A stretch of DNA of 32,000 bases from Candidatus Nanoarchaeia archaeon (GTDB lineage Archaea > Nanobdellota > Nanobdellia > Woesearchaeales > JANQNC01). Below the pieces are notes generated by a model. The model was not told the origin of the DNA, made no database searches, and worked only from the letters and a program-made list of their open reading frames with translations. Position numbers and translations under genes: made by a program. Below, piece by piece: positions 10,683 to 31,608 of the stretch; position 1 is the first letter of the stretch, and every line of letters starts with the position of its first letter. Where the stretch lies: positions 810,001 through 842,000 of the forward strand of contig JANQNC010000001.1 in assembly GCA_028279745.1 (NCBI GenBank), given 5' to 3'.

Positions 10683-10964
10683 TTTTTTTGCCTCCTTATA
10701 TTCCTATGAAGGTCGTATCAGAAAAAGTATCGTGATATAGTTATATCTTAACAGCAAGAGACTAAAGTTTCTTGATGTGATTCCAATGAATGTGATACTG
10801 TGCTTAGAACGTATAGAACCTGAAAAAATTTGTTTGGTTAATATTGATTTAAACCAGTTTATTAGTGAATATGAAGTTTAAATGTGAATATTTGTTCATT
10901 ACGTCCTTATTTTCTTGATTAATGACCTTTTAGGTTTTGTTTTTTCGTTTAAATTGATTATAAT

Positions 10965-11132
10965 GTTTTGGAGCCCGAAACACTAACTCCCAAGCTCATA
11001 GCTTGACTTTCGTCGTATGCTCCATTGAGTACTCTCGCGTCGGGCTTTAATTTGTAAAGATTTCGTCATTTACCTGCCGAAAACGGCTTTGAAGGCAAAT
11101 TCAGGCTTCTTTACCATAGCTTTACGCTATAA
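10965..11132. ncRNA. candidate structured RNA or element (unclassified, strand unresolved)
   Basis: A GC-enriched patch in a 429-nt AT-rich spacer. A 7-bp closing stem, AGCCCGA (10972-10978) / TCGGGCT (11040-11046), encloses the hairpins AAGCT-CAT-AGCTT and GAC-TTTC-GTC. Further hairpins are GCCG-AAAA-CGGC (11075-11086) and ATAGC-TTTAC-GCTAT (11117-11131). On the minus strand, GAC-GAAA-GUC carries a GNRA tetraloop and AUAGC-GUAAA-GCUAU a GNRA-like 5-nt loop. No ORF. Confidence 0.3.
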
Positions 11133-11169
11133 TGTTGTAATAGTTAGGTTGTTTTTAAATGTTTGTTTA

Positions 11170-11424
11170 TCAAAATAATTTATCATAAATATTTTTTACT
11201 TTACATGCTAAGGCACCTGTTATTGCGCCTGCAGTTCCTCCAAGACCTGTTGTTATGTTTATTTTTGTAAGAGCTTCAAGGTTGGTGTGGTATTCACCTA
11301 ACACTTCGTGTAAACCTAAAGCGCCTCCAATAATACAACCTGCAGCAAATCCTCTTTTAACCCACTTTTGGTAATTTGGGGTTTGTTGACTTCTGGGCAC
11401 TGCATAAACTTCTTTTGTTTCCAT
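11170..11424 (-). CDS. cassette protein P6: small two-helix glycine-zipper membrane protein
   Basis: GFAAGCIIGGALG and GLGGTAGAITGALA are GxxxG/A ladders. Start moved to the second ATG (11424, METKEV) because GAGGT lies 7 nt upstream of it but only 1 nt from the ATG at 11430. Confidence 0.6.
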   Translation of the reverse strand: METKEVYAVPRSQQTPNYQKWVKRGFAAGCIIGGALGLHEVLGEYHTNLEALTKINITTGLGGTAGAITGALACKVKNIYDKLF

Positions 11425-11456
11425 TTTCATTACCTCTTGTTGATACTTGATTTTGT

Positions 11457-12134
11457 TTATCTATAATTACGTAAACTTTCAAGTGATTCTCTTACTTGAG
11501 GGGGGAATCTTTCCTCAAGCACTTTGGTGTTGCCTTGGTTAGCTATTTGAAAAGTTGATCTGCCTTTGTATGCTACTGTTGAGTTGCCTTCAAAACCTCT
11601 ACCTGAAAGGTTTTTACAGTATCCAATCATCAATCCATCCTTATTTTGATGGGCTATTTTTGTTAGATTGTCCAAATTAACCACAGCAAGGCCATTTCTA
11701 TTGTAAACTTCTACTTTTTTCTTTTCAGTGGTGCTGTTTTGATGGGTGTTGATTATTTTATATGCACCAACTGCGATAACTACTGCTGCTAAACTTGTTA
11801 ATGCAACTCGTTTTAATGTTGATTTGTAAGCTTTATCACCGTCGTTATAGTGTGGTGTTTGATTGTTTTCTTGATCTTCTTTTAGTTGGCTTCTTTTAGA
11901 AACATAATTCTTGATTGTATCTACACCTGCACCAATACCTGCTCCAATGGCACCAATACCTCCTGCACCTATTATACCTGAGATTGTGGAAAGCATGATT
12001 CTAAATTGTAGAGGTATACCTTCTGTACCACTCCACTCTTTACTTGCCATTAATCCAAATCCAGTCAAGCCACCTAGCACACCTCCTGTTTGTGCGCCAG
12101 CAAATTCGTCTTTCTTTTCTTGATTATTTTCCAT
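11457..12134 (-). CDS. cassette protein P5: glycine-zipper hairpin + TM + C-terminal sequon-rich domain
   Basis: The glycine-zipper hairpin is GGVLGGLTGFGL and GIIGAGGIGAIGAGIGAG. A basic loop and a third TM (VALTSLAAVVIAVGAY) follow. The roughly 90-aa C-terminal domain has 4 N-x-S/T sequons and the motif RGFEGNSTV, shared with P2. GAGGTGA lies 7 nt upstream. Confidence 0.65.
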   Translation of the reverse strand: MENNQEKKDEFAGAQTGGVLGGLTGFGLMASKEWSGTEGIPLQFRIMLSTISGIIGAGGIGAIGAGIGAGVDTIKNYVSKRSQLKEDQENNQTPHYNDGDKAYKSTLKRVALTSLAAVVIAVGAYKIINTHQNSTTEKKKVEVYNRNGLAVVNLDNLTKIAHQNKDGLMIGYCKNLSGRGFEGNSTVAYKGRSTFQIANQGNTKVLEERFPPQVRESLESLRNYR

Positions 12135-12140
12135 TTTTTA

Positions 12141-12794
12141 TCACCTCTTATTATACTTTGAAAAGTTCATAATTCTTCTTAAAGTGTGGTAGTCTGATCC
12201 GCCGATTACAAATGAGTTTTTGTAGTCGTTAACTGGGAACATTCCATTGATTGTATCTATATCTTTGATTTCTGGAGAGTCAATGTCTGAAACATCGTGC
12301 TTAACAACAATTGATTCAACTCCTTTGAAATTTCTATTGAAATCTTTAATGAAATCTAGATCATCACTTTGAATTTTGGTGTTAGTGTTGCTATTTTCCA
12401 GCATCACTTCATAATTACTGATATCTTTTGCACTTACTATTACATCTTCAGGATGGTTTATTTTCTCTCTAGGATCTTGGTTTTCATAACGTATTGTCAT
12501 AAATGCTCCTTTTGGAACTGGGGCGTATTCTTCAGTTCTTGATTGGCCTTGTCTGTAAATATCTACGCTATCTTTTGATGCAGATGCATTTTCAATTGCT
12601 GATGATTGATTTGTTGCACATGTAATTGGTTGTGGTGTTTTTTCCATTTTATCCTCTTGCTGTTCATTGACTATCTTGGTCTGAACGCAGTTTTCTAATG
12701 ATCTTGAATCCAAAAATTCATTGACTGACCCAGTGGTATTGAGGTCTATTATTAAGTTTGTTATTACATCCTTAGGAATTTCTGGTTTTTTCAT
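12141..12794 (-). CDS. cassette protein P4: soluble 217-aa hypothetical protein
   Basis: No hydrophobic segment and no recognised motif. GAGGT lies 6 nt upstream of the ATG. There is a 13-nt gap to P3 and a 6-nt gap to P5. Confidence 0.55.
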   Translation of the reverse strand: MKKPEIPKDVITNLIIDLNTTGSVNEFLDSRSLENCVQTKIVNEQQEDKMEKTPQPITCATNQSSAIENASASKDSVDIYRQGQSRTEEYAPVPKGAFMTIRYENQDPREKINHPEDVIVSAKDISNYEVMLENSNTNTKIQSDDLDFIKDFNRNFKGVESIVVKHDVSDIDSPEIKDIDTINGMFPVNDYKNSFVIGGSDYHTLRRIMNFSKYNKR

Positions 12795-12807
12795 GTTTTT
12801 ACCTCGT

Positions 12808-13272
12808 TTAATTGTTATAACCTAAAGACCCTAAAAACATTTTTCTGGTGTCTTCATCTTTAATTTTTCCACTCATCTCCGCAACAATACATTCAGAAGG
12901 TGGGCCTGCTATCTTTGAGATGTATGCAAACTCATAGAAATTTCCAGATTTACATAAATCATTGTATACTTCTGAAACTAAGTGTTGGGGAAAAATTGGG
13001 TCCACATTTGTTTTTCTAGTTAAATCACGTATTGAACAACCATCCCTTTGTTTAAGCAGCTGTTGCTGTGCAGTTCTTACTTGACCTGGCGAAGGTTCAA
13101 CTTTTGGGTTAAGATCATACAATCTTTTGAACCACAAAGGTTTTTCTTCTTTTAGAAGTATTTCATACCCTCTTCGCACAGTTTCATTTGAAACTTTAAC
13201 TCCGTGCAGCTCGTTAATCAAGCCACAACTGATAAGGTTTAACTGTTCTTGTTGTGATGGTTTTCTTCTCAT
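12808..13272 (-). CDS. cassette protein P3: soluble 154-aa hypothetical protein
   Basis: GAGGT lies 6 nt upstream and overlaps the P2 stop. A weak internal duplication is possible (VRRGYEILLK...F...PSPGQV versus VSEVYNDLCK...F...PSECIV). No family recognised. Confidence 0.55.
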   Translation of the reverse strand: MRRKPSQQEQLNLISCGLINELHGVKVSNETVRRGYEILLKEEKPLWFKRLYDLNPKVEPSPGQVRTAQQQLLKQRDGCSIRDLTRKTNVDPIFPQHLVSEVYNDLCKSGNFYEFAYISKIAGPPSECIVAEMSGKIKDEDTRKMFLGSLGYNN

Positions 13273-13275
13273 GTT

Positions 13276-13602
13276 TTAACCTCGGGGAATCATTACGGGA
13301 AATTTAATGCTATAGTTGTCTTTGCTAAATTTAGAATCTGCTTTATCTGCTTCTCTAAATATCTTTTCAACGATGTGTTTTCCTTTTACCATCATTGACA
13401 TGTAAGCATTTTGAGCTTCTGATAGCATTCCAGCTTCTTTCTTTTCGTTGTCTTTTGCGAAATACATTCCTGTAGTTGCATCATGGTAAACTGTGCTATT
13501 GTCTTCAAATCCTTTCTTCTGTAGACTTGTGTAAACGCCACCTAATATTTTGTGGTCTTTGATGTCTTCAAGTTGAATTTTTGCGTTTGGTTTTTCTGCC
13601 AT
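13276..13602 (-). CDS. cassette protein P2: 108-aa protein sharing a domain with the P5 C-terminus
   Basis: KKGFEDNSTVYH aligns with P5 RGFEGNSTVAY, about 12 identities over 35 aa. AGAGGTGTAAAAAAAATG upstream is nearly identical to the P1 initiation region. Confidence 0.6.
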   Translation of the reverse strand: MAEKPNAKIQLEDIKDHKILGGVYTSLQKKGFEDNSTVYHDATTGMYFAKDNEKKEAGMLSEAQNAYMSMMVKGKHIVEKIFREADKADSKFSKDNYSIKFPVMIPRG

Positions 13603-13607
13603 TTTTT

Positions 13608-14063
13608 TTACACCTCTATCTTATCGATGGTTTTGTTGAGCTGGTAAGCAGCTAACATTCCTACAAGATTCTTCCTAGCTTCATCAGGTAGATCTCTTAC
13701 AGTGTCTACTTTTGACTGTGCCATGCTGTTTAATCTTCCGAGGATTGTGTTGTATATCTTACTCGTTCTATTAACAACTCTTTCACCGCTTTCTAAGACA
13801 TTATCTTCTCCGTATTGTTTTTCTGCAATCTTTTCAAAAGCTTCATTATCTGCTTCCATTTTGCTGTTTATAGAATTGATGTACTTGGGGGTAAGTTCTA
13901 CTTGTGTTAGTGAGTTAGCTAACCCTCGCATAATGTCTTTTGGGTTTTCAACAAAAGTTTGTTTAGCTTTTGTCTTAAGGTATTGTGCTGTTGCTTGTAC
14001 TAAGCAGGTAAGGTAACTTTGGGCCTGAATTTCAGCACCCTTGTTTTCGGATTGATTTTCCAT
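13608..14063 (-). CDS. cassette protein P1: 151-aa predicted all-helical hypothetical protein
   Basis: First gene of the cassette, with GAGGTG 7 nt upstream of the ATG. No TM and no recognised motif. Confidence 0.55.
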   Translation of the reverse strand: MENQSENKGAEIQAQSYLTCLVQATAQYLKTKAKQTFVENPKDIMRGLANSLTQVELTPKYINSINSKMEADNEAFEKIAEKQYGEDNVLESGERVVNRTSKIYNTILGRLNSMAQSKVDTVRDLPDEARKNLVGMLAAYQLNKTIDKIEV

Positions 14064-14120
14064 TTTTTTACACCTCTTTTCCCTTTGTGGGATTTTCTAT
14101 ATGGGGTAATGTATAACTGA

Positions 14121-14133
14121 TATATAAACCTTT
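14121..14133 (-). promoter_or_regulatory. BRE/TATA box of the six-gene cassette
   Basis: The minus strand reads AAAGGTTTATATA, identical to the 13-mer at 1481-1493. It lies about 60 nt upstream of ATG 14063, implying a leader of roughly 35 nt carrying the GAGGTG SD. Confidence 0.5.
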
Positions 14134-14180
14134 CTTTTTTTAGTCACTGTTAAGTGGTAAAAAATGACCATTAAACAGCC

Positions 14181-14195
14181 AAAGCTTTATAAATA
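14181..14195 (+). promoter_or_regulatory. BRE/TATA box for the M50 protease gene
   Basis: AAAGCTTTATAAATA, with the TATA centre about 26 nt before ATG 14216 (leaderless). Confidence 0.5.
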
Positions 14196-14215
14196 ACAGA
14201 AAGGCTCTGAGAAGC

Positions 14216-14782
14216 ATGATATTCACACTTAGAGAGCTTTTAGATGCAGTATTAATGGTGGCAGTCATAGGATTCATATTCAAAGACTACTTCAAAATAA
14301 GACGATTCAACAGAGAAGGGATACCGATAGAAAACAAGCAAAGATTCAAACCATTTCTAATGGCGATAGCAGTGACAGCACCTGCCATAATAATACACGA
14401 GCTAGGACACAAACTAGTAGCGATGAGTTATGGGCTGCAAGCTACTTTCCACGCACACTACCCTGGACTGGGTATTGGGTTGGCACTAAAATTGATAGGA
14501 TCACCATTCTTATTCTTCATACCTGCATTCGTACAAACCTCGGGAACAATTTCAGGAATACCAACAGCACTAATAGCATTTGCAGGGCCAGCTGTAAATT
14601 TAGTTTTATGGTTGGTGTCTAAGATTGTTCTAGCTAAAGCTAAAAACTTATCAAAAGAATGGAAAATATTTTTATTATTAACAAGAAAAATTAATGGGTT
14701 CTTGTTCATAATAAACATGATACCTATCCCCGGATTTGACGGATTCAAAGTATTTACCTCAATAGCAGAGGTAATAATGTAA
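14216..14782 (+). CDS. site-2 protease (peptidase M50) family intramembrane metalloprotease
   Basis: HExxH within a TM (IIHELGHKLVA) and the second signature NMIPIPGFDG (NxxPxxxxDG). A polytopic 188-aa protein. Confidence 0.8.
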   Translation: MIFTLRELLDAVLMVAVIGFIFKDYFKIRRFNREGIPIENKQRFKPFLMAIAVTAPAIIIHELGHKLVAMSYGLQATFHAHYPGLGIGLALKLIGSPFLFFIPAFVQTSGTISGIPTALIAFAGPAVNLVLWLVSKIVLAKAKNLSKEWKIFLLLTRKINGFLFIINMIPIPGFDGFKVFTSIAEVIM

Positions 14783-31495: not shown

Positions 31496-31608
31496 GGGGA
31501 CGTAGCTCAGCCTGGGAGAGCACTACGCTGAAGACACACTCACTACGTTCGTAGTTTCAGAGTGTCTCTGAAACGTAGGTGTCCCGGATTCAAATTCCGG
31601 CGTCCCCA
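31496..31608 (+). tRNA. tRNA-Phe (GAA) with a roughly 39-nt intron at the canonical 37/38 position
   Basis: Acceptor GGGGACG/CGTCCCC and D arm GCTC-AGCCTGGGA-GAGC. The anticodon stem is CTACG/CGTAG, with loop CT-GAA-GA (GAA at 31530-31532). The T arm is CCGGA-TTCAAAT-TCCGG and the discriminator is A. The intron is about 31534-31572, with an internal hairpin ACUAC-GUUC-GUAGU and an exon-intron helix AGACAC/GUGUCU compatible with a bulge-helix-bulge site. Confidence 0.9.

Follow-up and report, generated by a model that had tools for sequence, protein, structure and literature searches.

Glycine-zipper helices are typical of toxins such as the Cdz-type and class IId bacteriocins. Short proteins with hydrophobic helices that bear in-register GxxxGxxxG motifs make up the families Gly-zipper_Omp, Gly-zipper_YMGG and Rick_17kDa_Anti and the transglycosylase-associated GlsB/YeaQ/YmgE type. 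We compared with these systems, and with the clusters of orphan genes (ORFans) of DPANN and other small genomes, a six-gene cassette (P1 to P6) from Candidatus Nanoarchaeia archaeon. It lies in a 32,000-nucleotide (nt) stretch of contig JANQNC010000001.1 (positions 810,001 to 842,000, forward strand), hereafter the window, and its last two genes, P5 and P6, encode glycine-zipper membrane proteins. Like the strain- or lineage-specific ORFan clusters found in variable regions of DPANN and other small genomes, the cassette consists of orphan, fast-diverging genes with a bias towards small membrane proteins, and gene content at this site differs between relatives; nothing essential sets the cassette apart from this category, which fits it best. 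We consider it rather probable that the cassette is a lineage-restricted, rapidly evolving accessory operon in which P5 and P6 form a glycine-zipper membrane assembly and P1 to P4 are cytoplasmic. DPANN archaea depend on other cells, and the membrane proteins mediating this dependence are little known. An operon that is specific to one lineage and encodes two glycine-zipper membrane proteins makes a reasonable candidate for testing; as things stand, comparison with relatives lends no support to a dedicated role.

The open reading frames (ORFs) of the cassette and its two upstream signals are as follows:
P1, 13608-14063, minus strand, ORF of 151 amino acids (aa)
P2, 13276-13602, minus strand, ORF of 108 aa
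P3, 12808-13272, minus strand, ORF of 154 aa
P4, 12141-12794, minus strand, ORF of 217 aa
P5, 11457-12134, minus strand, ORF of 225 aa
P6, 11170-11424, minus strand, ORF of 84 aa (longest ORF 11170-11430, 86 aa)
Shine-Dalgarno (SD) sequence of P1, GAGGTG, 14071-14076, minus strand
B recognition element (BRE)/TATA box AAAGGTTTATATA, 14121-14133, minus strand, exact match, approximately 58 nt 5' of the P1 ATG

A preliminary description of this DNA had reported six same-strand ORFs 3-32 nt apart, each with GAGGT(G) 6-8 nt before its ATG. All six were found at these positions, with gaps of 5, 3, 13, 6 and 32 nt in order from P1 to P6. The start of P6 was placed at the second ATG (11424), which has the correct SD spacing and is also used by an independent Logan gene call. 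The SD sequences (GAGGTG, GAGGTG, GAGGT, GAGGTA, GAGGTGA and GAGGTA from P1 to P6) were seen 6-8 nt 5' of the ATG in all six cases, with A-rich spacers, and this usage exceeds the background of the window. Any SD at all is found in 6/27 of the other genes, and those are of the GGAGG/AGGAG type, as opposed to GAGGT(G) in the cassette. Many other genes of the window have a TATA box approximately 30 nt 5' of the ATG and no SD, and these look leaderless. Apart from the cassette, the SD-led genes of the window are dnaG and a small number of others; uniformly SD-led cistrons are a local peculiarity of the cassette. Three of its SDs lie inside the final codons of the preceding gene, and this overlap of stop and SD is a geometry of translational coupling.

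The promoter box first described for the cassette is real, but it is not specific to it, as AAAGGTTTATATA is the BRE/TATA consensus of the whole window: 10 matches at ≤2 mismatches were found, versus 3.0 expected, mostly just 5' of genes and approximately 30 nt 5' of many. Its distance of approximately 58 nt from the P1 ATG points to an mRNA with a leader. The cassette shows the sequence features of an archaeal polycistronic operon, namely a single strand, short junctions, internal SDs, one upstream BRE/TATA box and no internal terminator, and the six genes look like one operon that is SD-led, has a promoter of its own and couples the translation of its cistrons. A separate observation concerns the starts of P5 and P1, where a 38-nt direct repeat (12112-12149 and 14041-14078, respectively; 79% identity) takes in the SD, the spacer and codons 1-8 (MENNQEKK in P5, MENQSENK in P1). 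It could be a local duplication or a convergence of translation-start regions.

We regard the six ORFs as real genes, since homologues with conserved columns exist for P1, P4 and P6. Codon scores are also highest in the annotated frame, among all six frames, for P2 to P6, for which they range from 0.17 to 0.22 compared with 0.20 ± 0.06 in 25 neighbouring genes. The cassette genes follow GC1>GC2>GC3 like the host genes, and the GC content (the DNA is 35% GC) and strand A-skew of the cassette are those of the rest of the window.

The glycine ladders noted earlier in P5 and P6 are present, and in both proteins an in-register GxxxGxxxG-type ladder lies within a hydrophobic helix. P5 contains 20 small-xxx-small motifs. 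Its glycine-zipper segments (residues 12-30 and 46-72; the ladder register S49/G53/A57/G61/A65/A69 is our own reading of the motif list) are followed by a conventional transmembrane (TM) helix at 108-128 and by a C-terminal domain of approximately 97 aa. In P6 the ladders form two zippers of four rungs each (G25/G29/G33/G37 and G62/G66/G70/A74), and the protein is predicted to be a two-helix glycine-zipper hairpin with both termini inside. Its sole homologue, P0015, is 43% identical over 53 aa and keeps the zipper. These features support P5 and P6 as glycine-zipper membrane proteins. The P6 hairpin is similar in size to the proteins of the Gly-zipper_Omp, YMGG and Rick_17kDa_Anti families and to GlsB-type proteins. 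No hidden Markov model (HMM) of these families, however, matched P5 or P6 at E≤1. In further contrast to them, P5 and P6 have no lipoprotein signal, P5 adds the conventional TM helix and the C-terminal domain, and the archaeal host lacks an outer membrane. The NCBIfam model YiaD_Gzip_OmpA scored 9.8 bits against a cutoff of 175. Because every family HMM test failed, we do not count P5 and P6 as members of the named glycine-zipper families.

None of P1 to P4 has a hydrophobic segment (the maximum 19-residue hydropathy is below 0.85), and we infer that they are soluble, cytoplasmic proteins. P1 has five homologues, 30-37% identical, and an alignment of the family shows the invariant residues E39, D43, L57, F76, A80, Q83, Y84, R95, R99, Y104 and L133. 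An AlphaFold2 model built from this small alignment is an all-helical bundle (predicted local distance difference test score, pLDDT, 77.8; predicted TM score 0.65), for which no fold match was obtained in the PDB or in the viral set BFVD, with no fold hit at E<0.8. The invariant ExxxD led us to consider a PhoU-like protein, which neither Pfam nor the fold search supported. The family is very small and restricted to low-GC contigs, several of them with archaeal-type genes, and a profile search with it returned only members already known, among them P0016. The latter is the tandem paralog on L085, an unrelated low-GC contig on which a P1-family gene is duplicated (601-1101 and 1137-1637).

P2 and P3 are soluble ORFans. 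No homologue was found for P2, and family, PDB and homologue searches gave no match for P3, in which two helix-turn-helix-like stretches were seen by eye only and have no Pfam support. A weak likeness links P2 with the C-terminal domain of P5 around the motif GFE[DG]NSTV (BLASTP E=0.003; shuffle z=4.3). P4 consists of a short N-terminal segment, a disordered linker (approximately residues 34-93) and a C-terminal alpha/beta domain (96-217). The pLDDT of its AlphaFold2 model is 62 overall and 65-91 across the C-terminal domain, and a PDB fold search with the model gave no match at E<0.8. P4 belongs to a three-member family, the others being P0008 (35% identity) and P0009 (31%); a metagenome scan with the family found nothing beyond the contig already known. 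The P1-like and P4-like proteins define two tiny new protein families.

The statement that none of the six proteins shows a recognizable motif agrees with our searches: Pfam, PHROGs, NCBIfam and PADLOC gave no above-cutoff match for any of them, and PDB sequence searches gave none with single proteins or profiles. The structure search that had been proposed as a check, carried out with the P1 and P4 models, likewise yielded no PDB fold match. Weak family matches were inconsistent among family members. When the six proteins were joined into one query and 1.84 billion representative proteins were scanned in full with HMMER, each of the six found itself, which serves as a positive control, and the additional matches numbered 5, 0, 0, 2, 0 and 1, respectively, from P1 to P6. 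P5 alone, searched against an index of 5.8 billion clusters, found only itself. In NCBI the exact cassette proteins are present a single time, on a 1.30-Mb contig; one Logan contig also has them, and a Logan assembly of the source sample (SRR20820740) contains the locus in identical form. The literature search found nothing specific to the cassette.

The window carries an archaeal signal recognition particle RNA, and the best relatives of its DnaG, at 63-71% identity, come from Woesearchaeota/Nanoarchaeia metagenome-assembled genomes; we assign the host to the Woesearchaeales-type DPANN archaea. In a reference set of 80 Woesearchaeal dnaG loci, searches of all ORFs by tblastn, phmmer and family HMMs detected no copy of any cassette gene. 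The genes upstream of a small RNA (sRNA) gene that precedes dnaG, described below, vary widely across these loci. The closest relative is represented by L082 and L083, whose dnaG start is 81% identical to ours at the nucleotide level (52/55 residues by our own count), more than in any of the 80 reference loci, and whose sRNA region is 75% identical to that of the window. At the position equivalent to P4, upstream of the same sRNA and dnaG, they carry the P4 homologue P0009 (330-1007 in L082, 160-837 in L083). There is no room for P5 and P6. The ORFs flanking P0009 in L082, one upstream and one of 65 aa downstream, were considered as diverged P3, P5 or P6 and rejected (shuffle z<1). The identity of 31% in P4, set against 75-81% in the adjacent DNA, implies that P4 diverges very fast.

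In every context recovered, the P1 homologues are solitary or, on L085, a tandem pair, and they are never followed by P2- to P6-like genes. The neighbouring ORFs, as read from their translations, are HtpX-like, DinB/Dpo4-like, a proteasome beta subunit and methyltransferase-like; the L085 pair is flanked by the HtpX-like and DinB/Dpo4-like ones, and another neighbourhood holds a PIN/MazE toxin-antitoxin pair. Homologues of the six genes were not found together in related genomes, on homologue-bearing contigs of 0.9-2.3 kb, and we do not consider the six genes a conserved unit. The preliminary description had proposed a coherent, co-translated module. What stands of this is a set of operon-like, SD-coupled orphan genes; its coherence does not, as co-occurrence in relatives, named beforehand as a test of the proposal, comes out against it. 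Part of the value of the analysis lies in this negative result on the conservation of the module.

The operon most plausibly represents locally assembled, rapidly turning-over, membrane-associated accessory genes and not a dedicated six-part machine. It occupies a variable stretch between the site-2 protease (S2P)-secFD genes and a conserved sRNA-dnaG unit and would be expressed as one leadered polycistronic mRNA. P5 and P6 would be small integral membrane proteins whose GxxxG ladders most likely hold the helices tightly together in a membrane assembly, either homo- or hetero-oligomeric; P5 has an additional domain of approximately 97 aa, weakly resembling P2. P1, as a helical bundle, and P4, with its alpha/beta domain behind a disordered linker, would, like P2 and P3, be soluble proteins of the cytoplasm. 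The cassette is real but ordinary; genomes of this kind hold many orphan clusters like it.

Several points weigh against this reading. The oligomerization of P5 and P6 is deduced from the motif alone, and the single polycistronic mRNA is probable on the strength of sequence signals only. No clear oligo-T terminator was seen 3' of P6, so that read-through into the sRNA and dnaG is possible. The topology of P5, for which the positive-inside rule was tried, is ambiguous, as a net positive charge is found in the loop 73-109 and in the C-terminal domain alike. The codon score of P1 (0.054) is below that of the neighbours, and P1 nevertheless has homologues. Finally, the contigs that carry homologues are 0.9-2.3 kb long, so that co-occurrence is visible for one or two neighbouring genes only.

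Among the alternatives, the one that survives best, and that we still consider unlikely, is that the cassette is left over from a mobile element, such as an integrated virus or plasmid, whose genes kept their own SD-led signals. All six genes are orphan, their uniform use of SDs is unlike that of neighbours, many of which look leaderless, the region is variable and adjoins a small RNA gene, and one P1 homologue sits amid toxin-antitoxin genes; these points favour such a remnant. However, no hallmark gene (integrase, capsid, terminase or replication gene) was found, PHROGs gave no match at E<0.002, single-protein scans with P1, P4 and P5 found no relatives on viral contigs, and the P1 model has no match in BFVD. 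Codon usage and GC content are host-like. No tRNA was found adjoining the cassette. A search for att-like flanking direct repeats found none around it, the sole notable repeat being the 38-nt stretch of P1 and P5. P1 homologues elsewhere are also led by strong SDs in ordinary chromosomal contexts, so that SD use is a trait of these families and not a sign of foreign origin. Taken as a whole, the locus does not show the features of an integrated mobile element or provirus.

Slightly less probable, and in our view improbable, is a conserved six-component apparatus that would build or control a membrane pore or a cell-cell contact structure of an episymbiont, along the lines of the preliminary description. 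The tight operon with its uniformly strong SDs, the two glycine-zipper membrane proteins and the DPANN host would all suit such an apparatus, but P1 homologues occur alone or duplicated beside unrelated genes, the nearest relative retains P4 only at this site, P2, P3 and P5 are free of homologues, and none of the six genes appears in the 80 related loci. We give as little weight to the most novel idea, that P5 and P6, with P1 to P4 as soluble partners, constitute an undescribed glycine-zipper membrane channel or surface-contact device of a single Woesearchaeal lineage, its rapid evolution being due to exposure to the host or to viruses.

P5 and/or P6 could also be glycine-zipper toxins or holin-like permeabilizers, with some of P1 to P4 as immunity or chaperone partners, a possibility that we rate as low as the six-component apparatus. 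It is suggested by the glycine-zipper helices themselves, which P5 and P6 share with the Cdz-type and class IId bacteriocins, by the weak similarity of P5 residues 47-81 to Bacteriocin_IId (PF09221; 19.0 bits against a cutoff of 23.6, E=0.0016) and TIGR03651 (15.4 bits against a cutoff of 30.7, E=0.018), and by one P1-family member that matches Imm71 weakly (E=0.0014). All such matches, however, are below the curated cutoffs and on glycine-rich low-complexity sequence, those of P5 being confined to a Gly/Ala/Ile-rich stretch. Cdz systems comprise adjacent type I secretion genes (for a transporter of the ATP-binding cassette type and an adaptor) and an immunity gene, whereas the neighbours here are dnaG, the sRNA, S2P, secF and secD. 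No transporter was found in or beside the cassette, and neither a leader peptide or signal, an ATP-binding cassette exporter or type I secretion system, nor an immunity, maturation or circularization gene lies nearby. P5, moreover, differs from small secreted bacteriocins: it is an anchored membrane protein of 225 aa, with a folded domain as well as its conventional TM helix. The PADLOC defence families gave no match at E≤1 for any of the six proteins.

The divergent neighbour of the cassette invites a further explanation. The cassette and the S2P (M50)-secF-secD genes diverge across a 152-nt spacer (14063-14216) with back-to-back BRE/TATA boxes. The box on the S2P side is:
BRE/TATA box of the S2P gene, 14181-14193, plus strand, divergent from that of the cassette

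The translated S2P gene contains HELGH and has a Peptidase_M50 match. As the gene starts 153 nt from P1 on the opposite strand with the TATA boxes back to back, P5 and P6 could be substrates or partners of the protease, their glycine-rich, helix-destabilized TM segments being cut by regulated intramembrane proteolysis. We judge this very unlikely: among the 80 dnaG loci, the contig itself aside, there is one weak S2P-like match (26% identity), the adjacency to S2P is not conserved, and no locus of the 80 has the cassette. That some or all of the six are chance ORFs and not genes, as the lack of any homologue for P2, P3 and P5 might suggest, can be dismissed almost entirely in view of their lengths (108-225 aa) in 35% GC DNA, the top codon score in the annotated frame, the strong and correctly spaced SD of every ORF, a strand A-skew equal to that of other coding regions, and the homologues of P1, P4 and P6.

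The reading of the cassette as an accessory operon leaves the conserved neighbour on its other side to be described. This element lies outside the cassette and marks its boundary:
H/ACA-like sRNA, 10964-11114, minus strand, in the spacer (487 nt, 10683-11169) that separates P6 from dnaG

Part of the spacer is taken up by a structured RNA (fold z = -3.8). An nhmmer search of the 80 Woesearchaeal dnaG loci gave 72 matches to this sRNA, approximately 70 of them at E≤0.01, and the nucleotide identity is 76-88% in approximately 70/80 loci. The sRNA is always on the strand of dnaG, mostly approximately 100-300 nt upstream of it (range 14-444). The conservation of this sRNA-dnaG unit places the cassette on its variable side. 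The stems covary, with 89.9% of cells paired compared with 20-45% in slid controls. As in archaeal box H/ACA guide sRNAs, the hairpins number two; in most relatives an ACA comes after each, and the covarying stems enclose invariant internal-loop strands. By inspection, the ACA stands one nt past the basal stem in most of 38 aligned relatives, and the spacing between the upper stem and the ACA is approximately 15 nt (our own count), within the 14-16 nt of H/ACA sRNAs. The copy in the window has CCA or AAA where relatives carry ACA. A further difference from archaeal box H/ACA sRNAs is a covarying CAC/GUG pairing, which would make the putative guide pocket smaller. The RNA contains an AAUGAGC strand, which presumably resembles the K-turn/K-loop strand of Pyrococcus H/ACA RNAs; the opposing GA sits in a covarying Watson-Crick helix. 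No rRNA lies in the window, and no Rfam family matched the sRNA. It looks like a candidate double-hairpin H/ACA guide sRNA, and this unannotated element beside dnaG, conserved across the sampled Woesearchaeal loci, is a concrete new item.

Elsewhere in the window, the Rfam tRNA model matches a 113-nt stretch (31496-31608, plus strand) that is absent from the ARAGORN output; it is presumably an intron-containing archaeal tRNA.

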